The notes under the pieces were generated by a model. The model saw only the letters and a program-made list of their open reading frames with translations, was not told where the DNA came from and made no database searches. From IMG/VR virus record IMGVR_UViG_3300027260_000002: a DNA stretch of 64,000 nt, one strand, 5' to 3'. Both the position numbers and the translations under genes were made by a program. Of this stretch, positions 1 to 60,900 are shown piece after piece (position 1 is the first letter of the stretch; each line of letters begins with the position of its first letter). The DNA is from a virus. Its lineage: Duplodnaviria; Heunggongvirae; Uroviricota; Caudoviricetes.

Positions 1-204
1 GGCGATCGAAACTACGAGTGGCTAAGCGTCAATTCAAACGGAGATGCAATCCTTTGCTGCAATGATTATAACTTTGATTATATCTTTGGTAACATTCTTG
101 AACAAGAACTGAGTGAAATGTGGCACAGCGAGAAGCACGTCGAGACCATCGACAGAGCCTACAACAACATTTGTACAAAGTGTAGCGCATCAGTCACGAA
201 ATAG
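1..204 (+). CDS. partial CDS (3' end only, 5' end lies upstream of the window); Cys-rich C-terminal domain protein
   Basis: Frame 1 is open from position 1 to TAG at 202-204. Translation: ...GDRNYEWLSVNSNGDAILCCNDYNFDYIFGNILEQELSEMWHSEKHVETIDRAYNNICTKCSASVTK. CC and CxxC cysteine pairs suggest an Fe-S/Zn auxiliary domain (possibly SPASM/twitch-like) but the fragment is too short to assign. Confidence 0.35.
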   Translation, partial: GDRNYEWLSVNSNGDAILCCNDYNFDYIFGNILEQELSEMWHSEKHVETIDRAYNNICTKCSASVTK

Positions 205-217
205 TATAAATAGTCCT

Positions 218-505
218 ATGGGTTACGATACTATATTCAAACTTATTGGTGATGTCGGATTCCCCATCGCAGCAGCATTGCTCGGTGGGGTTTTCGTTTA
301 CTTCGTTATCAACTACATTCTTGAGAGTGTCGTGAAGGCAATCAAGGGAATGCAGGGTATTATTATGGGGCTTGACAATCGAGTCAAGACAATGAACCAT
401 GATATTATTCGCGTTGATGCAGTTGTAAGTTCCGCTCTTGGTCTGAAGCCAGATCTCGACAGAATCGCACGAGCAGACGGGAAGAACGATGCTCGGAAAG
501 ATTAA
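218..505 (+). CDS. small membrane protein, paralog A of a tandem pair
   Basis: ATG at 218 in the same frame as track ORF 113..505. It starts after the stop of the upstream partial gene. Hydrophobic segment GFPIAAALLGGVFVYFVINYI. Clear paralogy with the next ORF. Confidence 0.5.
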   Translation: MGYDTIFKLIGDVGFPIAAALLGGVFVYFVINYILESVVKAIKGMQGIIMGLDNRVKTMNHDIIRVDAVVSSALGLKPDLDRIARADGKNDARKD

Positions 506-768
506 TGGATCCACAAATAATTGCAGAACTGGTAAAACAATATGGATTTCCAATTGTCGCAGCGGTCGGCATGGGTTATTTTGTGTGGTTCATCTATAAG
601 TTCGTAACAGATAAACTAATGCCATTGATTGGCGAAACAAATGTAATTTTAATTGCGTTGATTGATCGTGTCCGTATGTTGGATAACGATCTTATTCGAT
701 TGAATCAGAAGGTGAACGTTGTATTGCAGATAAAGGAAGATCACAGTGAACATAAATCTAAAGATTGA
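505..768 (+). CDS. small membrane protein, paralog B of a tandem pair
   Basis: MDPQIIAELVKQYGFPIVAAVGMGYFVWFIYKF... aligns with 218..505 (shared GFPI(A/V)AA, G.FV.F, LI...R, D.IR). ATGA overlap with the previous stop. Confidence 0.5.
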   Translation: MDPQIIAELVKQYGFPIVAAVGMGYFVWFIYKFVTDKLMPLIGETNVILIALIDRVRMLDNDLIRLNQKVNVVLQIKEDHSEHKSKD

Positions 769-842
769 AATCATCAAGATCTTCACACTTGAATTTAGTC
801 TTTCTTCGAACAAAGATATACCTTTTAAGAGGGAAAAGAAAG

Positions 843-1283
843 ATGAAAAAGAGTCTGCTCCTGCTAGCTCTGATACTAAGCAGCCCAGCAAAAGCTGATC
901 CACTCGTACAGCAGTTTAAAAGTCCGTCCTTCAATGGATATGGATGGTCACAACATGTGCAGGCAATCGATGCGCAAGAACGTTCTCGTGAACAAGCAAT
1001 CAAAGATGCAGAAGCAGCAAAAGCCGCTCTTGCAAAAGCTGAAGCTTCGAACACTCCGCTTGCAAAGTTTATGGCTCTGTTTACCTCTCAGGTATATGCT
1101 CAGCTAGCCACACAGCTTTCAAACAATCTCTTTGCCGAAGGTTCTGCTCAGCAAGGCATGTTCAATCTCGATGGTAACACAATTAGCTATGTAAAAACTG
1201 GCACATCTGTGACGTTGACAGTTGTCGACAAATTTGGTAACACGACAGTCGTGACTGTTCCTATCGCAACGTTTGCGTTTTAA
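843..1283 (+). CDS. csgF: curli assembly component CsgF-like secreted protein
   Basis: ATG at 843 preceded by GAGGG. Signal peptide MKKSLLLLALILSSPAKA. Mature N-terminus DPLVQQFKSPSFNGYGW resembles E. coli CsgF FQFRNPNFGG. Lies immediately upstream of a strong CsgG homolog, matching the csgEFG gene order. Confidence 0.55.
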   Translation: MKKSLLLLALILSSPAKADPLVQQFKSPSFNGYGWSQHVQAIDAQERSREQAIKDAEAAKAALAKAEASNTPLAKFMALFTSQVYAQLATQLSNNLFAEGSAQQGMFNLDGNTISYVKTGTSVTLTVVDKFGNTTVVTVPIATFAF

Positions 1284-1292
1284 GGAGAAGTC

Positions 1293-2117
1293 ATGAAAAA
1301 GCTAATTTTACTTCCACTGCTTCTTGTCACAACTGCCTGCGCAGGCGGAGTGCATCCTCATCTCAATCAGTCGTATCTGATGAGAGAAGATGCCGAGGTA
1401 GAAAGATTTGCAAATCCTAAGTTGTTCAGAACTCTACCAGAACTTGACGGTCAGGTAATTCCGATTGCCATCTACTCGTTCACTGATAGAACAGGACAAC
1501 GCAAACCTTCTGCTACTCAAGCCAGCTTTTCGACAGCCGTGACTCAAGGTGCAGATGCTTATGTTATCAAAACATTGGCAGATGTCGGAGATGGCAAATG
1601 GTTTAAACCAGTCGAGCGTGTAGGCATCGATTCTTTAATTAAAGAACGTCAGCTCGTAAGACAGATGAGAGAGCAACAACTCGGAGAAGGTGCTGAGCCA
1701 CTTCCTCCTTTGATGGTTGCGGGTATCATTCTTGAAGGTGGTATTATTGACTATAGTTCAAATACCAAAACTGGTGGTAACGGTGCACGATTCCTTGGAA
1801 TCGGCCCTTATCAACAGTATGCAGAAGATCAAGTTACTATTAGTATGCGACTCGTATCAGTACAGACAGGAGAAGTCCTGACCTCTGTCACTGTTGAGAA
1901 GAATCTGCTCTCTACGTCCGAGGGAGTGACAGCATTTAAGTTTTTTGACATGGCAACAAAAGCTTTTGAATTCGATGGACAACAAACATCGAATGAAGCA
2001 GGTAGTTATGCGATCCGTTCAGCCATAGAAACGGCCGTTGTGGAATTGATCAAGGACGGTGAACGTAAAGGTCTATGGAGATTTAAGCAAAAGGAAACAA
2101 CAAATGAAGGTAATTAA
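1293..2117 (+). CDS. csgG: curli production/transport outer-membrane lipoprotein CsgG-like
   Basis: RBS AAGGAG. Signal peptide ending ...TTAC (possible lipobox Cys). Blocks IAIYSFTDRTGQRKP, GNGARFLGIG and SAIETAVVELIKDGERKGLW match conserved E. coli CsgG blocks (VSVYNIQDETGQFKP, GVGARYFGIG, SAIETGVIFLINDGIDRGLW). Confidence 0.85.
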   Translation: MKKLILLPLLLVTTACAGGVHPHLNQSYLMREDAEVERFANPKLFRTLPELDGQVIPIAIYSFTDRTGQRKPSATQASFSTAVTQGADAYVIKTLADVGDGKWFKPVERVGIDSLIKERQLVRQMREQQLGEGAEPLPPLMVAGIILEGGIIDYSSNTKTGGNGARFLGIGPYQQYAEDQVTISMRLVSVQTGEVLTSVTVEKNLLSTSEGVTAFKFFDMATKAFEFDGQQTSNEAGSYAIRSAIETAVVELIKDGERKGLWRFKQKETTNEGN

Positions 2118-2877
2118 ATCTTTATTCGTTGGAGCTGCTCTTCTTTATGGAACATCTGCGATTGCACAAACAGTGCTACCAACAGCCCCAACTCCACCAG
2201 CAATTGTAACTACGTCACCAAATGAAGTGACTGCAGCTGCAGTAGCTACAACAAACAAAGTATATATCGACCAAGAAGGTGGTAATGTAGATGTTAACAT
2301 TGTTCAAACTGGTACTGCTAATATCATTGGCGACAATGCTGATCCTATCTATTTACGAGGTGATAATCAAAGTGTCATCGCTGTTCAAACCGGTAACGGA
2401 AACGAACTCTACATGGGCGTGGTCTCCGCTACAGGAGCAACAGGAATCGCAGCAGTAACTGTTCGTCAGATCGGTAATCTCAACACTGCAGACATTCGTT
2501 GCGGCACGCTTCAATCTGATGCTATCTGTAACAAGTTTGATCTGAATGCCAGATTTACAGGCGATTCAAACTCGCTCGTATTCCATGGTTCAGGCGAAAA
2601 CATTCGTAACTCGATGGATATCACTGGTGACAACAATGCATTCAACATCGATGCACTCTCGCCTAACGCAACTCAAACCATTCTCGTGACTGGTGATTAC
2701 AATGACTTCGACGTGACACAAACAGGTCTCGGCGGAACATTCGGCCATTCTCTGTATGTGAACCTCACAGGTACACTGAACACCATTACAACCCAACAGT
2801 ACGGAGCTTCTGAAACCGTAATCAATATTAACTCGGCGGGTTCAAATGGTACGTTTAATATTAAAACTGGCCATTAA
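2104..2877 (+). CDS. secreted curlin-repeat protein (CsgA/CsgB-like amyloid subunit candidate)
   Basis: ATG 2104, signal peptide MKVIKSLFVGAALLYGTSAIAQ. Multiple Q-x-G-x-(G)-N-type repeats (IDQEGGNVDVNIVQTGTANIIGD, IAVQTGNGNELYMG, VTQTGLGGTFGH, TTQQYGASETVININ) reminiscent of curlin repeats. Confidence 0.55.
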   Translation: MKVIKSLFVGAALLYGTSAIAQTVLPTAPTPPAIVTTSPNEVTAAAVATTNKVYIDQEGGNVDVNIVQTGTANIIGDNADPIYLRGDNQSVIAVQTGNGNELYMGVVSATGATGIAAVTVRQIGNLNTADIRCGTLQSDAICNKFDLNARFTGDSNSLVFHGSGENIRNSMDITGDNNAFNIDALSPNATQTILVTGDYNDFDVTQTGLGGTFGHSLYVNLTGTLNTITTQQYGASETVININSAGSNGTFNIKTGH

Positions 2878-3982
2878 TGCACTCTTTCTGATATCGGTTC
2901 CAGCTTTTGCAGGCGTGGGATCGATATCAGAATTTCAGGGTGGAGGTTCTGTAAAGCGTGGTGCAAAAGTTGCACCTGCTGCTAAAGGCTCGAGTATCGA
3001 GAAGAACGATACTGTGTCGACCAATTCTCAAGGTAAATTTAAGATTCGATTCGTCGATGCCACCACTGTGAACATCACACAGAATTCACGGCTGGTCATC
3101 GACGATTTCGTATATGATGGAAACAATAAGAGCAAAGGCAAGCTCGGTTTGAAGCTAGCTTTAGGAACTGCAAGATATACTTCTGGAGCGATTGCTCATG
3201 GCAATGCTCGTGGTGTCGGTATACGTACACCGACTGCAACGATCGCCGTAAGAGGTACAGACTTTGTCATGTCTGTCGACGAAGCTGGCAGATCGACAGT
3301 CGTTCTTGTTCCTGAATGTTACAATGACAAAGATATCACAAAGATCAACTTCGAATGCCCATCAGGAGCTATCGACGTGATCACTGCTGCAGGTATCGTC
3401 ACTCTGACTCAGCCATTCCAAGCAACGATGGTCGAGAATTCTTATGCGCCTCCTGCTCCTCCTGTCGTCATCAATCCTTCAATGAAGGGTATGGACAACA
3501 ATATTCAGATCTCTCCCCTCGAAACCGATGATGGACAATCACTGATCACAGCAGCTCGTGAAGCTTTGAAGAAGTTTGTCAATCCTGCAAAAGCGGCATC
3601 TGACGATAACCAAGATCCAAATACTGGCGGAGATGGTGTAGAAGAAGTAGCGGTGGCTACACTTCGTTTGCCTACACAGAATGAACTTCAAGAAATTTAT
3701 GCAGAGTATAATTCTGGAAAGAGGCCTACAGAAACCGTTTATACGAACGTATCGCCCACTTTTAAGAAGTTGGTGCAGGTAGGTTGGGTATACTCGAGAA
3801 TCTCTGAAGATAAGAATCAAGTTGTCGTGGTATGGTTACCAAAAGATACTGAAATCCAAATGATTTCATCTCATAATGGTGTCGTCGACGCATACAATTT
3901 TATGGATGATAAATGGACTACGACTGGCACAGGTAGACCGCAAGGAAATATCACCGTGATACAAGAATCGGGTGTAAGATGA
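2846..3982 (+). CDS. secreted protein with FecR-like beta-sandwich region
   Basis: N-terminal hydrophobic signal. Central segment IRFVDATTVNITQNSRLVIDD...IAVRGTDFVMSVDEAGRSTVVLVPEC matches the FecR-domain pattern (GT.F.V ... V.V.EG). Start is uncertain because it overlaps the previous gene by 32 nt. Confidence 0.4.
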   Translation: MVRLILKLAINALFLISVPAFAGVGSISEFQGGGSVKRGAKVAPAAKGSSIEKNDTVSTNSQGKFKIRFVDATTVNITQNSRLVIDDFVYDGNNKSKGKLGLKLALGTARYTSGAIAHGNARGVGIRTPTATIAVRGTDFVMSVDEAGRSTVVLVPECYNDKDITKINFECPSGAIDVITAAGIVTLTQPFQATMVENSYAPPAPPVVINPSMKGMDNNIQISPLETDDGQSLITAAREALKKFVNPAKAASDDNQDPNTGGDGVEEVAVATLRLPTQNELQEIYAEYNSGKRPTETVYTNVSPTFKKLVQVGWVYSRISEDKNQVVVVWLPKDTEIQMISSHNGVVDAYNFMDDKWTTTGTGRPQGNITVIQESGVR

Positions 3983-5439
3983 TGAGATGGATCTTAACAC
4001 TACTACTGTTAACGTTCAGCGTACAGTTAAATGCGCAGACGCCTTCGAACTATGGTTTCGAAGATGGAAATTATGCGGGTTGGACGGTGTCGAACGGATC
4101 TACTGCACTTCGTACTTCATGGAGCGACACTGGTAACGGTGTACAAGTGACAACTGGAGTACAGAACTATTGCCCAGGCGGTGGTAAGTGCTGGACGATT
4201 ACTCCGTATGGATCGTACATGTTATCGATTCAAGCAGGAGGAAACTCGCCCAATTTTAATGCTGCGATGACTACTCTTGGGCTCAGCGCTTCTAACATTA
4301 CATCTATTCGTAACACGATCTATTCGAACGGATCGATGTATCCTACGAACGCTTCTTCAGTCAGTCGAACAGTATTCTTGCAGGCAGGAATTACATATTC
4401 GTTTGGTTGGCAGTATCTGTCGACAGACTATGTTCCGTATAACGATGGTTCTCTCATCACCTTGACGGGTGGACCGGGAACACCGACTCTCAACGGTCAA
4501 ACACAAAACTATGCGCTGTTAGGCTTTACAAATCCTGGAACTGGCAACTATTCGACTAACTCTTATAGTGCTACTGGCTGGCAAGTTGCCGTGTTCACGG
4601 TTCCAGCAGATGGCAACTATATGCTTGGATTCTCTTCTTTCAACCTCGGTGACACAGCTCTTTCGCCTATCTTATTCATCGATCAGTTACAAGGAACAAC
4701 GTCACTGAATGGTGCTACGTTTGCTCCTGTTGCACCGAACCAAGGATCTTCGGCACCGACTGCACCACCTCCACCTCCTGCAGAACCAGTATATCCAACT
4801 ACATCGATTACTACCAATCAAACTATCAAGCTCGGTCAAACGAATGCCATTACGAGCAACTCGATTTACATTCAAAATATCGGTGATAACAATACCGTCA
4901 ACATCGAGCAGTTCTCGAGGTTTAACGCTATCAGAGGTGTAAATGGTTCTCAATCGATGTTGATCAATGGTAGCAACAACTCCATTACTATCAATCAAGG
5001 TACTGCGGTCGCAATTCTTGGTAATAATCTTGCCGAAGTCTCTGTGACAGGAAACAATAACACCGTATCTCTGACTCAGCAATATAATGGCAAGTATGCA
5101 GAGCTAATAATGAATGGAACAGGAAATCAACTGACTGCCCAACAGAAAGATACTGGTGGAAAGTCTGCGTTCTTCAACATTTTAGGTAACTCGAATGTGA
5201 TTACGACTCTTCAACAAGGAACTGGTAATCATTTCCTCGATGTCAGTGCTCCGTATGGTGGGTTGAATGCAAATATCACTCAATCTGGTTCTGCACAGAA
5301 GCTGTTTAAATTGGTAATAAATAATCCTGGAATTGGAGTCACTGTATCGCAAACTGCCGCGAGCGTTACTGACTCAGTCTTAATGTCAATCACCTGCGCC
5401 ACTGGGCCATGTACTGGATACAGCTACGTAAAGAATTAA
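3979..5439 (+). CDS. secreted protein with N-terminal globular domain and C-terminal curlin-like repeats
   Basis: Signal peptide MMRWILTLLLLTFSVQLNAQ, Pro-rich linker APTAPPPPPAEP, then repeats SLTQQYNGKYAELIMNGTGNQLTAQQKDTGGKSAFFNILGNSNVITTLQQGTGNHFLDV (Q-x-G-x-G-N-x-A/L-x3-Q curlin motif). Confidence 0.55.
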   Translation: MMRWILTLLLLTFSVQLNAQTPSNYGFEDGNYAGWTVSNGSTALRTSWSDTGNGVQVTTGVQNYCPGGGKCWTITPYGSYMLSIQAGGNSPNFNAAMTTLGLSASNITSIRNTIYSNGSMYPTNASSVSRTVFLQAGITYSFGWQYLSTDYVPYNDGSLITLTGGPGTPTLNGQTQNYALLGFTNPGTGNYSTNSYSATGWQVAVFTVPADGNYMLGFSSFNLGDTALSPILFIDQLQGTTSLNGATFAPVAPNQGSSAPTAPPPPPAEPVYPTTSITTNQTIKLGQTNAITSNSIYIQNIGDNNTVNIEQFSRFNAIRGVNGSQSMLINGSNNSITINQGTAVAILGNNLAEVSVTGNNNTVSLTQQYNGKYAELIMNGTGNQLTAQQKDTGGKSAFFNILGNSNVITTLQQGTGNHFLDVSAPYGGLNANITQSGSAQKLFKLVINNPGIGVTVSQTAASVTDSVLMSITCATGPCTGYSYVKN

Positions 5440-5441
5440 TT

Positions 5442-6026
5442 ATGTTTATTTTTATACATGATAATGGCAATCTAAATGTTTTATCTATGACTAAGTGCGG
5501 TCATACGGCTATGTCATATTATTTTGGAATAGAACTACCAATGCAAAAAACATTTGCGCATTGGATAGAAGGAGAATCTCCGAAAGTAGTAGTATTAAGG
5601 CATCCAGTAGAACGTATGCATTCTGCTATTAATTTTCATGAAAAGCAATTTAATGAACGAATAGTAAAGTATAAAACCACCGGAGAATGCGACGACTTTT
5701 CTCTTATTGAAGACTTGATTAACTGGGATGATCGTCAACGAGAGTGGGAAATTGAAAGATTTATTTTTAATCAACACTGTCGTCCATATATGCATATTAT
5801 AAAAAATAGAGATTTTAGAATTATAAAATTTGAAGATCTATCTCAATATATTCCAAAGATATCACCCCGAGGCGCTGAAACCAATACTACTAATAGAAAT
5901 ATAGATCCTTTTCCAAAGAATAGATACTTTAAACGGGAAGATATGATAAAAGAGATTGAATTGTATGAGAGTCTTTTAGTAAATAGAGAAGTTATAACAC
6001 CCGAAGAATGGAAAGCGCTGACATGA
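5442..6026 (+). CDS. sulfotransferase-family protein
   Basis: ATG 5442 directly after the upstream stop. TKCGHTA (PAPS 5'-phosphosulfate-binding-like) and RHPVERMHSA (RxPxxR 3'-phosphate-binding-like). Markedly AT-rich relative to its neighbours. Confidence 0.45.
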   Translation: MFIFIHDNGNLNVLSMTKCGHTAMSYYFGIELPMQKTFAHWIEGESPKVVVLRHPVERMHSAINFHEKQFNERIVKYKTTGECDDFSLIEDLINWDDRQREWEIERFIFNQHCRPYMHIIKNRDFRIIKFEDLSQYIPKISPRGAETNTTNRNIDPFPKNRYFKREDMIKEIELYESLLVNREVITPEEWKALT

Positions 6027-8071
6027 TGAAAAAGATTCTACTGAGCCCGTGGTTGGCGCTCTTTACATTTGCAGTACTATTTACTTTTAAGTTACAAGAT
6101 CCATATCTAGTTGAAGCGACTCGTCTTAAATTTTATGACTACATCATGCTCGATAAAGCAAAACAATCTGAGCAGATTGTAGTCGTTAATTTAGGGGAGA
6201 AAGCAATTGAAAAATATGGCCAGTGGCCGTTCCCGCGTGAAGTCCACGCTGAAATTATTGGGAACATTTATGGCCGAGGGGCTGCTCTTGTTGGCAGCAC
6301 TGTACTTATGCCTGAGCCTGATCGGATGGGCACTGATCGAGTTCTTGTTGATACTCTAAGCAAGTATCCAGTTGTTCTTAGTCAGACTGTGTCGGCGGAT
6401 TGTGGTCGACCATCCAGTCGCGATGTTCGTCGGACAGGTGTGGCTGTTGTTGGGGATGGCCAGTCAACCGATTTTCTTCCGTCATATCCATGCGTCCTAT
6501 CGAATCTAGCATTGCTTCAGCAGCATGCTGCTGGTGTTGGAGTGACATCAACTCTTCCTGAACCTGACGGTGTTGTGCGACGAGTTCCGCTTCTCGCAAC
6601 CTCAGCGGGTGAATACTACCCTGCATTTGCTCTAGAAATGTTAAGAGTTGCTGCCGGAGATCCTTCGTATCAGGCAAAGATAAATGAGACTGGTGTGGAA
6701 GCATTACGAATTCCTTCTTTTGAAACTATTAAGACCGATGAATATGGTCGCGTGTTTATTAATCCAAACTATCGATTTGAGTCATACGAAATTGGCAAGG
6801 ATCCTTTGCCTGTCCTGAGTGGTAAAATCGTGATTCTCGGAGTAACTGCAGCTGGTGTAAGTAACCCTGTAGCGACTCCTTCAGGTGCGCAGTATCCCCA
6901 TCAGCTCCAGGCGAGTATTCTTGAGACTCTGATAAATGGTGATTCGGTTTCGATTCCGAATTGGACACAGCTTGTAGATCTTGCTGCTCTTCTTGTTTTG
7001 GCTCTGGCATTGATCATCATCTCTCGATTAAAATACTCTATCGTCTGGATAGGTTTAATTTTAGGCGGATATCTTTATCTGCCTATGTATTTATTCGCAA
7101 GCAAAGGAATCTTGTTAGACGTCACGTTTAACGTCATCGCAATTGCAATTATTTACATGCATATCTATACAGTGAAATTTATATCTGAATTCCTTCAGAA
7201 GCAACAAATCAAGAAACAGTTCGGCACATATCTGAGTCCAGATCTGGTAGCAAAATTGCAAAGACAACCAGATCTCTTGAAGTTAGGCGGAGAATCTCGC
7301 GAGCTTTCAATCATGTTCACAGACGTTCGAGGATTTACTACAATCTCTGAACACTATGGTGAAGATGTCCAAGGTTTGACTTCAATCATGAATCGTTATA
7401 TGACGGTCATGACAAGAGCGATCCTTGAAAACAATGGGACATTAGATAAGTATATTGGTGATGCACAGATGGCATTCTGGAATGCGCCGCTCGATAACAA
7501 ACAACATGCACGAGATGCAGTTCGAACAGCATTTCAAATGCTAAAAGACCTGGAGATATTTAATGAAGAAGTTGAAAGAGAAGGTATACCCGCTTTTGGC
7601 ATGGGTCTTGGTATTAACACTGCCACTGTGGTGGTTGGTAATATGGGCAGTAGCCAGCGTTTTGATTATACTTGTCTGGGTGATGGCGTTAATCTGGCTG
7701 CTCGTCTGGAAGGTCAATCCAAACCTTATGGCGTCAAACTCGTCGTCGGACCACAAACTGCCGAATTGGTTGGGGATGTATACCAAGTAGTTGAACTCGA
7801 CCTGATCGCCGTGAAAGGTAAGACAGAACCTGCTCGCATCTATACCATTTTTGATGTGGCAGATCCTGCTGGAGAATTGCTGCATAAAAAGTTCTTGGAC
7901 TTCTATCGTCAAGGTAAATGGGATGCAGCTATCAATCTGATAAAAGATCTGAAACGTTGCTGGGACGAAGAGCTGAATGCATACTACGATATGATGGAGA
8001 AACGCATTCAGAATCTAAAGTTTGAAGAACCCTGGGAATGGGACGGAGTTTATAGAGCTACAAGTAAGTGA
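6023..8071 (+). CDS. CHASE2-sensor class III adenylate/guanylate cyclase
   Basis: ATGA overlap at 6023. N-terminal signal/TM then a periplasmic CHASE2-like region. TM cluster (LVDLAALLVLALALIIISRL, IVWIGLILGGYLYLPMY...). C-terminal cyclase domain with LSIMFTDVRGFTTISE ... KYIGDAQMAFWNAP ... FDYTCLGDGVNLAARLEG. Confidence 0.8.
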   Translation: MMKKILLSPWLALFTFAVLFTFKLQDPYLVEATRLKFYDYIMLDKAKQSEQIVVVNLGEKAIEKYGQWPFPREVHAEIIGNIYGRGAALVGSTVLMPEPDRMGTDRVLVDTLSKYPVVLSQTVSADCGRPSSRDVRRTGVAVVGDGQSTDFLPSYPCVLSNLALLQQHAAGVGVTSTLPEPDGVVRRVPLLATSAGEYYPAFALEMLRVAAGDPSYQAKINETGVEALRIPSFETIKTDEYGRVFINPNYRFESYEIGKDPLPVLSGKIVILGVTAAGVSNPVATPSGAQYPHQLQASILETLINGDSVSIPNWTQLVDLAALLVLALALIIISRLKYSIVWIGLILGGYLYLPMYLFASKGILLDVTFNVIAIAIIYMHIYTVKFISEFLQKQQIKKQFGTYLSPDLVAKLQRQPDLLKLGGESRELSIMFTDVRGFTTISEHYGEDVQGLTSIMNRYMTVMTRAILENNGTLDKYIGDAQMAFWNAPLDNKQHARDAVRTAFQMLKDLEIFNEEVEREGIPAFGMGLGINTATVVVGNMGSSQRFDYTCLGDGVNLAARLEGQSKPYGVKLVVGPQTAELVGDVYQVVELDLIAVKGKTEPARIYTIFDVADPAGELLHKKFLDFYRQGKWDAAINLIKDLKRCWDEELNAYYDMMEKRIQNLKFEEPWEWDGVYRATSK

Positions 8072-8077
8072 GGTAAT

Positions 8078-8692
8078 ATGATTGATGATACGATGATGGC
8101 TTCTTATCGAGCTGAATTTGAGAAAAATGGTTTTGTTAAAATTAAAAACGTTCTGTCTCCTGAGATCATAGAGCTATATAAATCCTTTATCGATATCTCT
8201 CATCTCGATGATATGAGAAGGAGAGAAACGGGTCCATACTTAGGCGGAGACATTCAGTCTGTTGATGGCAACGTTCTCGATAATAGCATACTCTTATATT
8301 GCAAACATATCGTAGAAAAAATATGGGCAACCGATAATATGGTTCCTTCGTATGCCTATTCACGAGAATATTTTCGTGGAGCTGAACTCAAAAATCATCG
8401 AGATCGCGAAGCGTGCCAGTACTCCATCACTATCACGATGTGTAAGAGGGGAGAAGGAACGTCTGCGCTATTTTTTAGCGACTCAGATGATAAGAGCAAT
8501 CCGATACCGGTCGACCTTGATGAAGGTGATGCCATCATTTTCAATGGCGGATCAAACTATGGAGGCAAGTGGCACTGGAGAGATCCTCTCGAAATGGATT
8601 CATTAATCCAGCTATTCCTCCACTACGTCCATCCTGATGCATCACATCTTGCTGAAAGAGATTATCCAAGACCTTTTTATCGTTCACGCTGA
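8078..8692 (+). CDS. 2OG-Fe(II) oxygenase, phytanoyl-CoA dioxygenase (PhyH)-like
   Basis: N-terminus YRAEFEKNGFVKIKNVLSPEIIELYKSF is PhyH-like. HRD...H iron-binding candidates are present. Confidence 0.45.
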   Translation: MIDDTMMASYRAEFEKNGFVKIKNVLSPEIIELYKSFIDISHLDDMRRRETGPYLGGDIQSVDGNVLDNSILLYCKHIVEKIWATDNMVPSYAYSREYFRGAELKNHRDREACQYSITITMCKRGEGTSALFFSDSDDKSNPIPVDLDEGDAIIFNGGSNYGGKWHWRDPLEMDSLIQLFLHYVHPDASHLAERDYPRPFYRSR

Positions 8693-8741
8693 TTTTTAGC
8701 ATGTACATTTTATCAAAAGTTTGGTAAGGTGGACCTATAAT
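8693..8741 (+). promoter_or_regulatory. conserved early-promoter cassette (AATAA-CATGTACA-N17-TAAGGT-GGACC-TATAAT), PeSL-like
   Basis: ATGTACA at 8701-8707, 17-nt spacer, TAAGGT 8725-8730, TATAAT 8736-8741, then GAAGGA RBS. Near-identical copies at 18522, 18838, 56922 and 57354. Confidence 0.55.
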
Positions 8742-8757
8742 GATGAAGGACGAAAAC

Positions 8758-9225
8758 ATGAACATCACGATCACTGGTATGATTGGCAAGCGCAAAGAGA
8801 AAGCGCTCCTCAAGGAAGCCGCAGAATTCTTTGCAGCCCAACTCATGGATCCTCGCATGGTTCGCAACCTCACCCTCGACATCGAAGTTTACAACAACCT
8901 TGATGTTGAAGGCGAATGTGTCGATGAAGATGGTTTTCGCAATCCTCGTTGGTTCACCATCGGCCTGAAGAGCCAAGACATCAAAGACATGATCAAAACT
9001 CTCGGCCACGAAATGGTCCATGTTAAGCAGCATGCCAAGAACGAACTTCAGACTGGCCATGCAGTTGCTGCACGTGGCGGCCTCAAAATCTACAGCAAGT
9101 GGATGGGTGAAATCTGGAAAGCAAAACGCAAAGAAGATGATTACTTTGACTCTCCGTGGGAGATCGAAGCGTATGGCCGTGAAGTCGGTCTTTATGCAAA
9201 GTGGGTTCAATATAAAGGAAATTGA
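8758..9225 (+). CDS. HExxH zinc-metallopeptidase-like protein (SprT-like)
   Basis: ATG 8758 downstream of the cassette RBS. HEMVHVKQH...GH motif. Confidence 0.45.
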   Translation: MNITITGMIGKRKEKALLKEAAEFFAAQLMDPRMVRNLTLDIEVYNNLDVEGECVDEDGFRNPRWFTIGLKSQDIKDMIKTLGHEMVHVKQHAKNELQTGHAVAARGGLKIYSKWMGEIWKAKRKEDDYFDSPWEIEAYGREVGLYAKWVQYKGN

Positions 9226-9227
9226 TT

Positions 9228-9464
9228 ATGAAGATTATTGAAAAAGTTTTTAATGCCGTGTTCAGCTTTGGTGGTTTTATGACTATGGCTGGTATTCTAT
9301 TTCTACTCGGTCTTACGCTGATGATTAAAGGTGAGAATGCAGACAGGGCTCTAGTCGAGGCAACCACAAAGGCTTGCTATGACGGTGGTCTGATTAAAGT
9401 CGATACCGATGCAGGTTTTTATTGCGTTGCTCCTGCTAATCTTGTAAAGGTTGAAGTGAAATGA
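9228..9464 (+). CDS. small membrane protein
   Basis: ATG 9228 after AAGGA. TM segment FGGFMTMAGILFLLGLTLMI. Confidence 0.4.
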   Translation: MKIIEKVFNAVFSFGGFMTMAGILFLLGLTLMIKGENADRALVEATTKACYDGGLIKVDTDAGFYCVAPANLVKVEVK

Positions 9465-9673
9465 GTTTTTGGTTGATCGTATATCTGTTTACACAAGAAG
9501 GCGAGTTCATCGCCAAGGACGTTTATCAGACGGCTGATAAGGAACAGTGCGAGAGTTTTGCCGGCACTTATGCCAAGACCATTATCAATACCAAAACACA
9601 AGCACAGTTTCATTGTGTGAGTGACGATCACTATATGGGTCGTAAGCAAGACGAAGGTGTTGATTATGACTAA
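9461..9673 (+). CDS. hypothetical protein
   Basis: ORF with ATGA overlap to the upstream gene. No recognisable motifs. Confidence 0.35.
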   Translation: MSFWLIVYLFTQEGEFIAKDVYQTADKEQCESFAGTYAKTIINTKTQAQFHCVSDDHYMGRKQDEGVDYD

Positions 9674-11216: not shown

Positions 11217-12401
11217 TTATCCCCAATTGGCGTATTGTTTTGTTTTCTTTAAACGATCGTCAAGACCGTGTGTACCGCCATTCACTCTCTTCGAGATTTG
11301 AGTGATCACCGCATCGGTTACACCTTTGTCTGCAATTGCAAGCAATCCATTCTTACGGAAGAACCATAATGCAGACTCAAAAGCCAACTCACCAACCACA
11401 AGATCAGGATTCGTCAAGACGTCAGGACGTTTTACGTCAGCGGCAAAAGCTGTATAGTTGTCTTTCCCGGTCAGTTGGATCGGGCCTCGACCACGCCACT
11501 TCCAACCATCTCCAGAGGCTTCTGATCCGTTCCCCATCCGATTAGCATACACTTTGTTAGCAATCTTTTCTGGCTTACGAGCATAACCTGCGGTCGAAGC
11601 GATCGTAGGAAAATACTTCTTGAAGATGCCGTTGAGTCCCTTATCTGAGTAGTTCAGGTTCTCGGAGAACACCTTAAACCCGCCTGACTCGTGCGCACAC
11701 TGACCGAAGAAGTGCGCTGCTTGATTATTTGTCAGCTTGAAGTAATCTCTTGCTGCCTTATATGTGCCAGGTCCCCATTTACCGTCGGCAGTAATGCCGC
11801 ATTTTGTTTGGAGAGCAGCTAATGGACCAAGACCTGATACCTTTGAAGGAGCAGCCGGAGACGACTGAGGAGGCGCTTGCTTTGGCGCTGTGGCAATTGA
11901 AGGAGCCCCAGCAGCCTTTGTCGTCGATGGATCAAAGTCAGCGACCGTTGTATAGACGGTTCCGCCTGCCTTCGACTTCGTAGCGATCATACGCATCTTA
12001 CGATTGCCACCACCCTTCTTAATCGAAGCGTGAACCCAGCCAGAATTCTTATCGCCCTTTGTATAGAACTCAAGAATTACTTGGTCAAATTCGAGATTGT
12101 CGCCGATCCAATCCGCAACAACTTTGTTGTCAATACCAGGAATTTCGAAGTCGATCGCTTGGCCATTGACGTGCTGTGATGTCTTCGAACCGCCGACTGC
12201 CTTGTTCACCAACGGTGCACGATAAGACGAGTTGATTTGAACTGGTTTGCCAAAGTGATTACGAACTGGTTCGAGAATCTTTTCGCAGCAGTAACGCATG
12301 TTCTCAATGTGTTCTGGAGTTGGAGTGTTACTAAGTCCGAGTCTTTTTGCAGTAGGAGAAACAATCATCTCTGCCAAAGAAAAATGTTCAGTTAATTTCA
12401 T
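11217..12401 (-). CDS. multidomain endolysin: Peptidase_M15-like N-domain, peptidoglycan-binding domain, GH19 lysozyme/chitinase-like C-domain
   Basis: N-terminal SSYRAP...SQH..G.A.DF (M15 D-Ala-D-Ala carboxypeptidase-like). Middle CGITADGKWGPGT (PG_binding_1-like). C-terminal GQCAHESGGF ... NRMGNG ... WRGRGPIQLTG (GH19 signature blocks). Confidence 0.7.
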   Translation of the reverse strand: MKLTEHFSLAEMIVSPTAKRLGLSNTPTPEHIENMRYCCEKILEPVRNHFGKPVQINSSYRAPLVNKAVGGSKTSQHVNGQAIDFEIPGIDNKVVADWIGDNLEFDQVILEFYTKGDKNSGWVHASIKKGGGNRKMRMIATKSKAGGTVYTTVADFDPSTTKAAGAPSIATAPKQAPPQSSPAAPSKVSGLGPLAALQTKCGITADGKWGPGTYKAARDYFKLTNNQAAHFFGQCAHESGGFKVFSENLNYSDKGLNGIFKKYFPTIASTAGYARKPEKIANKVYANRMGNGSEASGDGWKWRGRGPIQLTGKDNYTAFAADVKRPDVLTNPDLVVGELAFESALWFFRKNGLLAIADKGVTDAVITQISKRVNGGTHGLDDRLKKTKQYANWG

Positions 12402-60392: not shown

Positions 60393-60424
60393 GCATGTAC
60401 AATTAAAGCCCGTTGGGGTATAAA
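60387..60424 (+). promoter_or_regulatory. CATGTACA-N17-TATAAA(TAG) promoter upstream of the tmRNA gene
   Basis: ATGTACA 60395-60401, TATAAATA 60419-60426. Confidence 0.45.
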
Positions 60425-60430
60425 TAGAAT

Positions 60431-60495
60431 ATCAGTTGTTGACAATCAACAATAAAGGCGGAAAGACCGGGGTTCGACTCCCCGCACCTCCACCA
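60431..60495 (+). ncRNA. ssrA: tmRNA acceptor piece (3' tRNA-like half) of a circularly permuted two-piece tmRNA; 5' boundary approximate
   Basis: T-arm CGGGG-TTCGACT-CCCCG at 60468-60484, acceptor 3' strand CACCTCC 60485-60491, discriminator A 60492, encoded CCA 60493-60495. The complementary 5' strand lies downstream, not upstream, so the gene is permuted. Confidence 0.75.
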
Positions 60496-60577
60496 TGGAC
60501 ACACAGTCTTTCAACCACATTGCACAGGATGTAATGTCACGACAGATTGACTGAGTTGCGCAACGTGTGTCCATGAT
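60496..60577 (+). other. intervening segment of the permuted tmRNA precursor, closed by a 10-bp inverted repeat
   Basis: ATGGACACAC (60495-60504) pairs perfectly with GTGTGTCCAT (60565-60574). This juxtaposes the CCA end and the GGGGGTG 5' end, as in alphaproteobacterial ssrA precursors. Confidence 0.6.
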
Positions 60578-60900
60578 GGGGGTGACTATGGAATTCGATT
60601 TTCGTGTAATAGGGCGGTTTGAGACTGATTGCTTGGCAAAGTGCCACTAAACATAAATGCTAACGATAACGATAGCTTTGCAGATATCCGCCTAGCGGCA
60701 TGATCTACACGGGTATGGCTCCACCTTGGAACAGAACGGGCCACTTACTACCAGTTGAATGACTGGTGCTACGAGTCGCCAGAAAAACTGCTGGCGGTAG
60801 TATAAATAAAATATCACGACGGAGGTTAGAATCCTCCATTGACTCTTGCAAAACTTCAAGTCTTAGATGGCTAGAAAGCGGCATCATTCGGATGCCACCG
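60578..60900 (+). ncRNA. ssrA: tmRNA coding piece (5' acceptor strand, D-loop analog, PK1, tag ORF, downstream pseudoknot region); 3' boundary uncertain
   Basis: GGGGGTG 60578-60584 pairs with CACCTCC giving G3:U70 (the AlaRS identity pair). ACUAUGGAAUUCGAU is a D-loop analog like E. coli AUUCUGGAUUCGAC. Tag ORF GCT AAC GAT AAC GAT AGC TTT GCA GAT ATC CGC CTA GCG GCA TGA at 60659-60703 = ANDNDSFADIRLAA*, preceded by an A-rich tract. Confidence 0.75.

Follow-up and report, generated by a model that had tools for sequence, protein, structure and literature searches.

Curli-type (type VIII) secretion modules of marine phages were described by Zaragoza-Solas (2020), Buchholz (2022) and Wittmers (2022), and their synteny is discussed in several reports (PMC7029224, PMC9004378, PMC9599517, PMC7198788). 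This T8SS module is carried by pelagimyophages, HTVC023P-type pelagipodophages and Melnitz (HTVC008M, KC465899; Melnitz, MZ577097; PMC7029224, PMC9004378, PMC9599517), its annotated order in HTVC008M and Melnitz running from a pair of small membrane proteins through CsgF, CsgG, curlin and FecR to a CHASE2 adenylate cyclase, which a second curlin may precede, and metatranscriptome expression of marine versions has been reported (PMC9599517). The window examined here (the whole 64 000 nt stretch of DNA that was analysed) shares gene content and order with this module, and both are without CsgE, CsgC and CsgD and are found in T4-like (Kyanoviridae-type) genomes that encode a permuted tmRNA as well. 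A search for syntenic loci found the same arrangement in HTVC008M, Melnitz, 67 IMG/VR loci and about 12 phage-like MAG contigs. The initial annotation of a curli-type locus in a T4-like phage was borne out by Pfam, PHROG and structure matches, but its description as unusual does not hold in the sense of new, as the same six-gene synteny was already annotated in HTVC008M and Melnitz. Judged by its genes, the locus joins the T8SS module known from marine pelagiphages and Melnitz. Its proteins are 27–51% identical to the HTVC008M and Melnitz versions, and no DNA-level match to the window was found in the GenBank phage collection. It differs in the head of the second curlin (an unnamed adhesin-type module in the window, PA14 at the same position in HTVC008M, none in Melnitz) and in an extra variable gene, orf6, ahead of the cyclase.

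With the curli system of E. coli and Salmonella (csgBAC–csgDEFG) the window has in common the CsgG lipoprotein channel, CsgF, secreted subunits with strand–turn–strand repeats of about 22 aa bearing Q/N/G ladders, and the F-then-G gene order, which was correctly likened to csgEFG (csgF at 843–1283, then csgG at 1293–2117). However, Pfam and profile searches detected no CsgE, CsgC/H or CsgD in the gene cluster, and a clear CsgB-type nucleator could not be identified there (NCBIfam CsgB 17.9 bits against a cut-off of 165). The window subunits are also longer (8.5 repeats versus 5) and less regular, one of them is fused to a large head domain, a FecR–CHASE2-cyclase pair is embedded among the genes, and the set forms a single co-directional array in a lytic phage.

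Five ORFs were confirmed between 843 and 5439, all on the + strand (as are all features given below), and their translations hold verbatim every peptide block that had been quoted for them. In order they encode CsgF, CsgG, a curlin-like beta-solenoid, a FecR-domain protein and a 486-aa protein ending in curlin repeats, and all five have a signal-peptide-like N-terminus (positive n-region, hydrophobic core and A-x-A-type end, judged by eye and hydropathy). Throughout the co-directional array neighbouring genes are tightly packed or overlapping, and dN/dS is 0.06–0.16 across all eight genes, all of them under strong purifying selection. The T4-like context is confirmed by PHROG matches to T4-type DNA polymerase (gp43), DnaB-like helicase (gp41), NrdA and NrdB; the polymerase is about 49% identical to cyanomyophage gp43, and the G+C content of the window is about 43%. 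The octamer TATAAATA (205–212), which has the T4 late-promoter consensus, lies 5 nt ahead of the first gene of the array. The window has seven occurrences, every one on the + strand, where 2.2 would be expected (none of 100 shuffles reached seven), and the position of the octamer is kept in all close relatives; in HTVC008M, Melnitz and several marine loci it is likewise found close to tm1 or csgF, an exact match being absent in the L041–L064 group. As a message started from this octamer would begin at the ATG (leaderless), we take it as weak evidence that the array may be expressed late.

The CsgF homologue (843–1283, 146 aa) carries the signal peptide MKKSLLLLALILSSPAKA and matches phrog_35372 and, over positions 6–132 of the 132 in the profile, Pfam CsgF (64.6 bits, E 1.3e-17). 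Pairwise BLASTP against E. coli CsgF was not significant; by eye its mature N-terminus, QQFKSPSFNG, is similar to FQFRNPNFGG of E. coli CsgF. CsgF, which nucleates and anchors fibres at the pore, is conserved throughout the related loci. The description of the next protein (1293–2117, 274 aa) as a strong CsgG homologue, and hence a predicted outer-membrane lipoprotein channel, stands on its Pfam score (174.5 bits, E 2.3e-51) and on the match of residues 43–268 to the E. coli CsgG structures 3x2r, 4uv3 and 6si7 (E 3e-44). Its sole cysteine, Cys16, lies within a lipobox-like LVTTAC (by eye and hydropathy), it is 45–49% identical to CsgG of HTVC008M and Melnitz, and its gene has a dN/dS of 0.08. 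HfaB of the holdfast anchor (HfaA/HfaB/HfaD) of Caulobacter, an alphaproteobacterium, is likewise a CsgG-family outer-membrane protein exporting amyloid-like anchor proteins, but on the NCBIfam models the window protein reaches 163 bits for CsgG and only 23 for HfaB, it is accompanied by CsgF, and neither HfaA nor HfaD was detected in the window.

The first curlin-like protein, rptA (2104–2877), has a signal peptide, a conserved Pro-rich N-segment and about 8.5 strand–turn–strand repeats, each closed by G-x-x-N. Its annotation as a 258-aa curlin-repeat protein was right as to the repeats (Curlin_rpt 20.8 bits, barely over the Pfam cut-off of 20.7) and slightly out as to the length, which is 257 aa from the ATG or 272 aa from an upstream GTG. 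The repeats are irregular (27–29 aa, then about 22 aa, plus a disulfide-bearing insert), autocorrelation is weaker than for the second protein (lags 11 and 22, z 3.0 and 2.1) and the match to E. coli CsgA by hhalign is weak (probability 30%). For the curlin-like proteins Foldseek gave no significant match against the PDB; the best structural match of the repeat proteins is CsgA, with no tailspike, and their only HMM family match is to curli subunits. What can be added to the published descriptions is that a secreted N/Q/G/S/T-rich, curlin-like protein of 220–250 aa is encoded after csgG in 28 of the 28 divergent loci with listed ORFs, those tested passing the Curlin_rpt cut-off (24.3 and 25.2 bits); the second curlin of HTVC008M scores 33.1 bits. 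With a dN/dS of 0.06, rptA is as constrained as csgG.

The second curlin-type protein, rptB (3979–5439, 486 aa), consists of a signal peptide, an adhesin-type N-domain of about 255 aa (nt 4036–4800), a Pro-rich linker and curlin-type repeats (approximately nt 4846–5358). The curlin periodicity proposed for it was recovered by autocorrelation of the C-terminal 200 residues, which gave lags of 45, 23 and 11 (z 4.9, 2.9 and 2.7), the same fingerprint as E. coli CsgA in this test (lags 45, 22, 23 and 11). The Curlin_rpt score (16.2 bits) is under the 20.7 cut-off; hhalign relates the repeat region to the rptA family with a probability of 92% (E 5e-7) and rptB to E. coli CsgA with one of 2%. In the structure model the repeat region has a pLDDT of about 80 and the N-domain is poorly modelled. 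Homologues of this N-domain span 286 protein clusters and, among 47 representatives, 10 carry an autotransporter beta-domain, five Big_9/cadherin, four Curlin_rpt and two F5/8 type C. By these architectures it is an unnamed domain borne also by autotransporters and cadherin-type adhesins, which is a further addition to what was known of the module. The C-terminal tail contains cysteine. rptB is confined to a close clade, with weak repeat-region matches in HTVC008M, L065 and L075. Its layout of passenger plus curlin repeats is that of engineered curli display by CsgA fusions (Van Gerven et al. 2014, cited in PMC10192328), but rptB is a natural fusion with an N-terminal passenger of about 255 aa, whose secretion and display are predicted. 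A head of this size would need to pass unfolded through a pore of about 1.2 nm.

Between the two curlin-like genes lies that of a secreted FecR-domain protein (2846–3982, 378 aa; phrog_37870), as had been proposed for the fourth position: residues 55–155 match Pfam FecR (47.6 bits, E 2.4e-12) and the protein has a signal peptide and two cysteines. It weakly resembles the Leptospira FecR-type lipoproteins LipL45 and Lsa33, and its gene is present in nearly every related locus long enough to include it. The 687-aa product of 6008–8071 (alternative start 6023; phrog_35576, E 7e-237) is a CHASE2 receptor fused to a class III adenylate cyclase (Pfam CHASE2 130.8 bits, Guanylate_cyc 63.5 bits) and occurs in almost all related loci. 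Its hydrophobic segments are at 9–27, 267–285, 320–338, 345–363 and 368–386, and as that at 267–285 falls inside the Pfam CHASE2 match it was not counted as transmembrane; the predicted topology is read as one transmembrane segment, a periplasmic CHASE2 domain, three transmembrane segments and a cytoplasmic cyclase. The catalytic domain matches CyaB 3r5g (E 1e-31) and CyaC 1wc1 (E 2e-29), the nearest solved structures being adenylate cyclases, and its motifs FTDVRGFT, DKYIGD and DYTxxGDxVNLAARLE are conserved and intact.

A secreted FecR-domain protein beside a CHASE2 receptor is a recurrent bacterial pair (PMC5192318, PMC9239204, PMC5498481). In the Burkholderia BiofilmReg operon such a gene adjoins that of a membrane receptor whose CHASE2 domain is periplasmic (PMC5192318), CHASE2 adenylate cyclase clusters of Campylobacterota combine a FecR-domain neighbour with class III adenylate cyclase output (PMC9239204), and the CHASE2 cyclases CyaD1/D2/K of S. 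meliloti also have class III output, the FecR-domain SMc02177 being described separately (PMC5498481). Unlike these, the window pair is embedded in a curli operon, is split in its clade by rptB and orf6, and has no phosphodiesterase, TPR protein or response regulator nearby; in IMG/VR loci without a second curlin the FecR and cyclase genes abut. The bacterial csgG loci that come closest, those of Rhizobium and other alpha- and gammaproteobacteria, showed no FecR or cyclase homologue within 8 kb, so that the presence in the phage module of a sensor pair known from bacteria and missing there is also added here. We prefer to read the FecR protein as a putative partner of the CHASE2 cyclase encoded downstream rather than as a component of the export machinery. 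The suggestion of a surface-remodelling island containing a sulfotransferase and the cyclase survives for the cyclase, a conserved module member, and is weak for the sulfotransferase. The latter, orf6 (5409–6026, likely start 5442), encodes a cytoplasmic protein of 194–205 aa with zero Pfam, NCBIfam or PHROG matches and only 46 homologues, all unnamed; the best match of its family profile in the PDB is the sulfotransferase 3rnl, a weak one (E 0.019). It is a sporadic insert outside the core module, absent from many loci that otherwise match (L004, L007–L015 and others) and in which the cyclase directly follows rptB.

We consider it probable that the array is a streamlined type VIII secretion operon, carried by the phage and linked to an envelope sensor, and that with it the infected cell builds adhesive curli-like fibres. 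The phage proteins would be exported by the host Sec system during infection, CsgG and CsgF would form an outer-membrane pore, and rptA would cross it unfolded and polymerise at the surface, where rptB may join the fibre through its curlin repeats and display its adhesin-type head; fibres with such heads would coat the infected cell or its debris or make it sticky. Together, the FecR protein and CHASE2 cyclase may act as a periplasmic sensor pair converting an envelope signal to cAMP. CsgE, CsgC/H and CsgD are plausibly missing because a doomed cell needs neither protection from premature amyloid nor a host regulator. As candidate pay-offs, published work has put forward the capture of neighbouring hosts and the exclusion of rival phages, and clumping of Melnitz-infected cells was not seen in cytograms or TEM (Buchholz et al., PMC9004378).

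That observation also suits a reading that we regard as unlikely, in which CsgG and CsgF simply export monomeric beta-solenoid surface proteins or adhesins, cell-attached or released, with no polymerised fibre. The nearest solved structure and the sole HMM family match point instead to curli subunits, and CsgF, the known fibre nucleator and anchor, is conserved throughout; yet the irregular repeats and disulfide insert of rptA could block polymerisation, rptB has a large head and a cysteine-containing C-terminal tail that could cap the solenoid, and many beta-solenoids of curlin-like fold do not polymerise (PMC10192328). Slightly less likely again is that CsgG, alone or together with CsgF, has taken on a new role as an outer-membrane channel timing or assisting lysis, the repeat proteins being irrelevant. 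Buchholz et al. (2022) proposed such a pinholin-like or secretin-like role for Melnitz from structure models and the absence of clumping (PMC9004378), and the octamer at the head of the array and the lack of a CsgE gate in the cluster would fit it. Its premise that csgA/B are missing fails, however, since all loci examined have a gene for a secreted curlin-like protein after csgG, under constraint matching that of csgG; a channel in the outer membrane, unlike a pinholin, cannot depolarise the inner membrane, an endolysin is encoded separately in the window (11217–12401), and CsgF, the adhesin-head fusion and the FecR–cyclase pair are left unexplained.

The undetected CsgE gate and the FecR domain have also been taken to hint at an ungated CsgG pore admitting nutrients, cofactors or siderophores, with FecR pointing to iron (PMC7029224, PMC9599517). 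We find this improbable: the phage FecR protein is missing the anti-sigma architecture of true FecR and adjoins a CHASE2 receptor, an arrangement known from bacterial sensor pairs that have nothing to do with iron citrate uptake (PMC5192318, PMC9239204), a hole in the outer membrane alone gives no passage across the inner membrane, and the conserved curlin subunits and CsgF go unaccounted for. The initial annotation had further offered the repeat proteins as virion fibres exported by the phage channel; more broadly, they would be virion fibres or decorations exported or assembled with its help. This proposal is very improbable, as both proteins have predicted cleavable Sec signal peptides, while virions of the T4 type are assembled in the cytoplasm, the best structural match is to CsgA and not to a tailspike, the module lies among replication and auxiliary genes and outside any structural module, and the same module occurs in podoviruses whose virions are unrelated (PMC9599517).

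The array that we interpret as a fibre-building operon begins with two small genes, tm1 (218–505, 95 aa) and tm2 (505–768, 87 aa), which are paralogues and both match phrog_18771 (E 3e-31 for tm2). tm1 has no Pfam domain; a single N-terminal membrane helix (one hydrophobic 19-mer) is followed by a helical tail. The gene at the equivalent position was called a 'histidine kinase' (PMC9599517), but a kinase domain was undetectable in tm1. In most loci tm1 immediately precedes csgF; in L043, L044, L048, L063, L065–L067 and L091 it is located elsewhere, on the opposite strand. tm2 has one hydrophobic segment and, against L008, a dN/dS of 0.09.

The five ORFs that span 843–5439 on the plus strand are packed tightly or overlap, lie at the coordinates given in the initial annotation and contain all of the peptide strings quoted there. 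The claim that they make up a curli-type secretion locus is borne out by Pfam HMM searches, in which the first ORF (843–1283, +) matched CsgF (64.6 bits, E 1.3e-17), the second (1293–2117, +) matched CsgG (174.5 bits, E 2.3e-51) and the fourth (2846–3982, +) matched FecR (E 2.4e-12). The third, rptA (2104–2877, +), a curlin-like subunit, passes the Curlin_rpt cut-off (20.8 bits against 20.7) and the fifth, rptB (3979–5439, +), a second curlin-type protein, falls below it (16.2 bits). Each of the five proteins carries a signal-peptide-like N-terminal segment. The array extends past these coordinates at both ends, starting with the single-pass membrane protein tm1 (218–505, 95 aa) and its paralogue tm2 (505–768, 87 aa, also single-pass), both in phrog_18771, and finishing with a CHASE2–adenylate cyclase receptor gene at its 3′ end (6008–8071; Pfam CHASE2 and Guanylate_cyc). 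All junctions are overlaps or gaps of ≤ 75 nt. The dN/dS values against one related locus (L008) are 0.06–0.16 for all eight module genes, which are thus under strong purifying selection. A profile search over all ORFs in the window found no further curlin-like genes. The T4-like phage setting is likewise confirmed, as the window encodes a T4-type DNA polymerase (PHROG, 1045 bits; about 49% identity to cyanomyophage gp43), a DnaB-like helicase, NrdA and NrdB as well as an endolysin.

CsgG aligns with the solved Escherichia coli CsgG across 226 residues (E 3e-44) and its single cysteine, Cys16, falls within a lipobox-like LVTTAC, as for an outer-membrane lipoprotein channel of the CsgG family. 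The adjoining accessory protein CsgF covers its Pfam profile from end to end at well over the cut-off of 25.8 bits, and its gene stops 9 nt upstream of csgG, although pairwise BLASTP with E. coli CsgF was not significant. Other curli components were sought among the array proteins. The periplasmic adaptor/gate CsgE gave no match, even when the unassigned proteins were tried to E 10, and it is likewise missing from marine phage modules (PMC9599517). No CsgC/CsgH chaperone or CsgD regulator was detected. For the nucleator CsgB the NCBIfam model gave 17.9 bits where 165 are required, in an array with two curlin-type proteins. A cell that is bound to lyse can plausibly do without the functions of the absent CsgE, CsgC and CsgD. 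Among public assemblies, 144 blocks of the collection contain a CsgG identical to that of the window, on contigs of up to 161 kb.

The array encodes a secreted curlin-repeat subunit of the CsgA/CsgB type. In an alignment of 39 homologues rptA consists of about 8.5 strand–turn–strand units, each closing in G-x-x-N (for example VQTGTAN, VQTGNGN, RQIGNLN, RFTGDSN and ITGDNN), and the AlphaFold model (mean pLDDT 81, about 90 across most of residues 50–257) has 16 strands, two per repeat, so that the predicted fold is curlin-like. The strict motif [QTSFRN]-x-G-x-x-N is enriched in rptA (five matches, a number reached in 7 of 2000 shuffles). In the repeat region of rptB there are two matches and no enrichment (877 of 2000 shuffles). 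In rptB the last 200 residues autocorrelate at lags of 45, 23 and 11 (BLOSUM scores, tested against shuffles), the pattern given by E. coli CsgA in the same test; the signal for rptA, at lags 11 and 22, is weaker. The rptB model is confident in the repeat region only, and this region appears from hhalign to be related to rptA (probability 92%, E 5e-7). The turns that close the rptB repeats, G-x(1,2)-N, are looser, and the description of these repeats as near-canonical curlin was therefore generous. Alignment to E. coli CsgA by hhalign was too weak for use (probability 30% for the rptA family and 2% for the rptB family), and a Foldseek search of PDB with both models, limited by the repeats and by the poorly modelled N-terminal domain, gave no match at E ≤ 0.001.

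The N-terminal 255 residues of rptB have no Pfam match, and their sequence matches in PDB are to flagellin at chance level. When 1.84 billion cluster representatives were searched exhaustively, homologues turned up in 286 clusters at E ≤ 1e-3, in which the domain is placed N-terminally, centrally or C-terminally in proteins of up to 3174 aa. It was characterized through its domain partners alone, by a Pfam scan of 47 representatives: an autotransporter beta-domain (with ESPR and PATR) accompanied it in 10, Big_9/cadherin repeats in five, Curlin_rpt in four and F5/8 type C in two. Because of these partners we take it to be a reusable surface-adhesin head. The rptB counterpart in the Pelagibacter phage HTVC008M has a PA14 domain at the same position (27.7 bits, cut-off 24). 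This protein, AGE60352 (9546–10871 of the HTVC008M locus, L001), is annotated as hypothetical; in it PA14 is joined to five Curlin_rpt matches (33.1 bits), which makes it a curlin body with a lectin-type head. In contrast to both of these versions, the counterpart in the Methylophilales phage Melnitz lacks a head domain. A 648-aa protein from the representative library (P0292) combines an rptB-type head, an F5/8 type C (discoidin) lectin domain and Curlin_rpt (25.4 bits), and is thus an adhesin–curlin fusion in three parts. In Rhizobium tubonense a 1114-aa protein is encoded after csgG (L085, 7848–12402), and Pfam detects nothing in it but a marginal Curlin_rpt at the C-terminus (20.0 bits), so that long N-terminal extensions on curlin-type proteins occur in alphaproteobacteria too.

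The secreted FecR-domain protein and the CHASE2/Guanylate_cyc receptor, as identified by Pfam, form a recognizable sensor pair that in phages is grafted onto curli genes. In IMG/VR loci without rptB (L041–L046, L048, L049, L053, L057 and L060–L067) the two genes abut; in the window, rptB and orf6 stand between them. The cyclase has five hydrophobic segments by hydropathy, one of which (267–285) falls within the CHASE2 match and was left out of the transmembrane count, and we read the topology as one transmembrane segment, a periplasmic CHASE2 domain, three transmembrane segments and a cytoplasmic cyclase domain. The catalytic domain is closest to CyaB (3r5g, E 1e-31) and CyaC (1wc1), and in the alignment to these it keeps FTDVRGFT, DKYIGD and DYTxxGDxVNLAARLE, that is to say the metal-binding Asp pair, the substrate-specifying Lys/Thr and the transition-state Asn/Arg of an intact class III cyclase. 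All of its best 15 PDB matches are adenylate cyclases. We take the product to be cAMP rather than cGMP from the Lys/Thr pattern of class IIIb enzymes. Among bacteria, a CHASE2 receptor gene beside one for a secreted FecR-domain protein has been reported from Burkholderiales and P. aeruginosa (PMC5192318), and from Campylobacterota with an adenylate cyclase as output (PMC9239204). For S. meliloti, both CHASE2 adenylate cyclases and a FecR-domain protein, SMc02177, are described (PMC5498481).

Relatives of the locus were found at the protein level only, megablast against 50,697 phage records giving no match. By tblastn with CsgG the only syntenic GenBank phages were HTVC008M and four Melnitz isolates (46–49% identity); one further match (41%) was to an unannotated 1.5-kb record of Salmonella phage S.Kent 1-2-1. 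The annotated order in HTVC008M and Melnitz is CsgF, CsgG, curlin-repeat protein, FecR, second curlin-repeat protein and adenylate/guanylate cyclase, and tblastn recovered this order in 67 IMG/VR loci and in phage-like contigs that had been assigned to MAGs, so that, with small membrane proteins ahead of CsgF and the second curlin treated as optional, the window shares a conserved module with other phages. Searched by tblastn with all of the module proteins, every IMG/VR contig of sufficient length has tm1, tm2, CsgF, CsgG, FecR and the cyclase. The second repeat protein occurs only in the close clade and in a few marine lineages. The first escaped tblastn in some loci; when the ORFs there were listed, a gene was found directly 3′ of csgG in each of the 28 divergent loci inspected. 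Its products are secreted, 220–250 aa long and 44–64% N/Q/G/S/T, they begin with motifs like SVYIDQTNADNS or NDIYVTQSGATLDLDILQDG, and the examples tested clear the Curlin_rpt cut-off (24.3, 25.2 and 33.1 bits). The MAG bins of related contigs disagree as to host (Bacteroidetes, Polynucleobacter, Rhodobacteraceae and Pelagibacter).

A bacterial origin for the whole cassette was considered and rejected. In a CsgG-profile scan of one genome per species, contigs with both FecR and cyclase also held tm1/tm2, CsgF or curlin and are therefore phage contigs binned into MAGs, and the nearest genuine bacterial csgG loci (37–47% identity; Rhizobium tubonense, Rhizobium sp. and assorted alpha- and gammaproteobacterial MAGs) have no FecR, cyclase, tm1 or tm2. 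The grafting of the sensor pair thus looks phage-specific, a view shared by Wittmers et al. (2022; PMC9599517).

The locus was correctly recognized in the initial annotation, but its kind was already published: the HTVC008M record labels CsgF, CsgG and a ‘curlin minor subunit CsgB’, and four papers describe such systems, making the window locus a new, divergent member of the published phage type VIII secretion (T8SS) module. Zaragoza-Solas et al. (2020) described the operon across pelagimyophages and proposed macromolecule uptake or ‘sibling capture’ (PMC7029224), Tominaga et al. (2020) noted curli genes in a T4-like genome with a predicted Bacteroidetes host (PMC7198788), and Buchholz et al. 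(2022) called csgA/B missing and suggested that the system helps to time lysis in the manner of a pinholin or secretin (PMC9004378). Wittmers et al. (2022) found CsgA/B-type genes, FecR and cyclase in podo- and myophages alike, detected transcripts at sea and weighed superinfection defence, sibling capture and import (PMC9599517). Phage-encoded curli systems are widespread, marine ones reportedly accounting for about 0.1% of the assembled viral proteins at each GOV2.0 ocean station (PMC9599517). The window carries the module into a distant, abundant T4-like lineage.

On balance we favour, with some confidence, a working secretion and fibre system in which the module proteins would be exported via Sec, CsgG and CsgF would form the pore, rptA would be secreted and then polymerize at the surface, rptB would co-assemble with it with the head on display, and FecR–CHASE2 sensing would be coupled to cAMP. 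That the repeat proteins are instead secreted solenoid adhesins that do not polymerize is unlikely, as their sole HMM matches and best structural matches are to curli subunits and CsgF is conserved. A role for the pore alone, in lysis, has a rather low probability: a constrained curlin gene is always there and the channel is in the outer membrane, and with the fibre-subunit gene always present the reading of an incomplete operon that supplies only a pore loses its premise. Use of the channel for import would leave both the curlin subunits and CsgF unexplained and seems improbable, while the proposal that the repeat proteins are virion fibres is contradicted by their signal peptides and can be given very little credence.

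Within the favoured fibre reading, swappable adhesin-type heads on the second subunit favour a role in adhesion or capture; together with the universal curlin gene these fusions point toward fibre formation and adhesion. One possible, and distinctly tentative, version is a natural ‘curli display’ in which amyloid fibres of rptA made late by the doomed cell, and bearing rptB heads, would tether fresh hosts at the burst site. The exchangeable head (unnamed here, PA14 in HTVC008M) would bind a ligand on neighbouring hosts or particles, the FecR–CHASE2 cyclase would signal envelope or contact state as cAMP, and head swaps between phage lineages would track host surface chemistry in the manner of tail-fibre tips. 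Should the fibres be confirmed, a lytic virus would here be building extracellular matrix on its host, with consequences for plankton aggregation, particle formation and phage–phage competition.

The octamer TATAAATA, of the T4 late-promoter consensus type, lies 5 nt upstream of the first ATG of the array. There are seven copies in the window (at 205, 10604, 18355, 27129, 29073, 60419 and 60801) against 2.2 expected, all on the coding (+) strand; several precede the start of a gene or an RNA by 8–140 nt. The array's own copy is kept in close relatives and several marine loci, although not in all, and gives a weak hint of late expression; a transcript starting from it would be leaderless. Intrinsic terminators and sigma-70 promoters in 1–9500 showed no excess over shuffled expectation. 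The copy at 60419 is about 8 nt upstream of the Rfam 5′ boundary of a permuted (two-piece) tmRNA (60400–60794; ARAGORN, tag peptide ANDNDSFADIRLAA; Rfam RF04321, 90 bits, 60434–60703, at the gathering threshold). This rare form is published for Melnitz and is likewise present in the window. No glutamine riboswitch was found in the window at the Rfam gathering threshold.

The small proteins upstream of csgF have been labelled histidine kinases (HK) (PMC9599517). For tm1 and tm2, of 95 and 87 aa with one membrane helix each, this can be rejected, since no Pfam match at all, HisKA and HATPase_c included, passed a cut-off in searches taken to E 10. They have a faint YvrJ-like match at the N-terminus (E 0.07), are better conserved between lineages (45–70% identity) than CsgF or the curlins, and in some lineages the tandem pair occupies a different genomic place. 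The cyclase is conserved with the module, but orf6 (5409–6026) is no conserved member of it. The orf6 protein (194–205 aa, cytoplasmic) is sporadic and missing from many sister contigs, 5409–6026 being a variable slot between the second curlin gene and the cyclase gene. Its proposed identity as a sulfotransferase is unproven: it has no match in Pfam, NCBIfam or PHROG, or in PDB with the single sequence, but its family profile weakly matches the sulfotransferase 3rnl (E 0.019), and the invariant C-G-H and R-x-P-x-x-R resemble, by eye only, the 5′-PSB and 3′-PB motifs for PAPS.

The window begins within a radical SAM/SPASM gene, whose 3′ end takes up positions 1–203. Beyond the cyclase gene, the 204-aa product of 8078–8692 weakly matches PhyH (2OG-Fe(II) oxygenase-type) and belongs to phrog_2954 (E 2e-26), a PHROG that carries the label ‘ferrochelatase’; HTVC008M likewise has PhyH-domain genes close to its curli operon. 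The endolysin gene (11217–12401, −) is the sole large minus-strand gene within the first 20 kb and encodes two domains, Peptidase_M15 and one like glycoside hydrolase 19/chitinase, giving the phage a conventional lysin independent of CsgG. Sister contigs also carry, in the 5 kb upstream (L103, 4929–8912), genes for an outer-membrane beta-barrel protein (PF13505), a peroxiredoxin and a DUF6552 protein, which places at least one further outer-membrane protein near the curli array.
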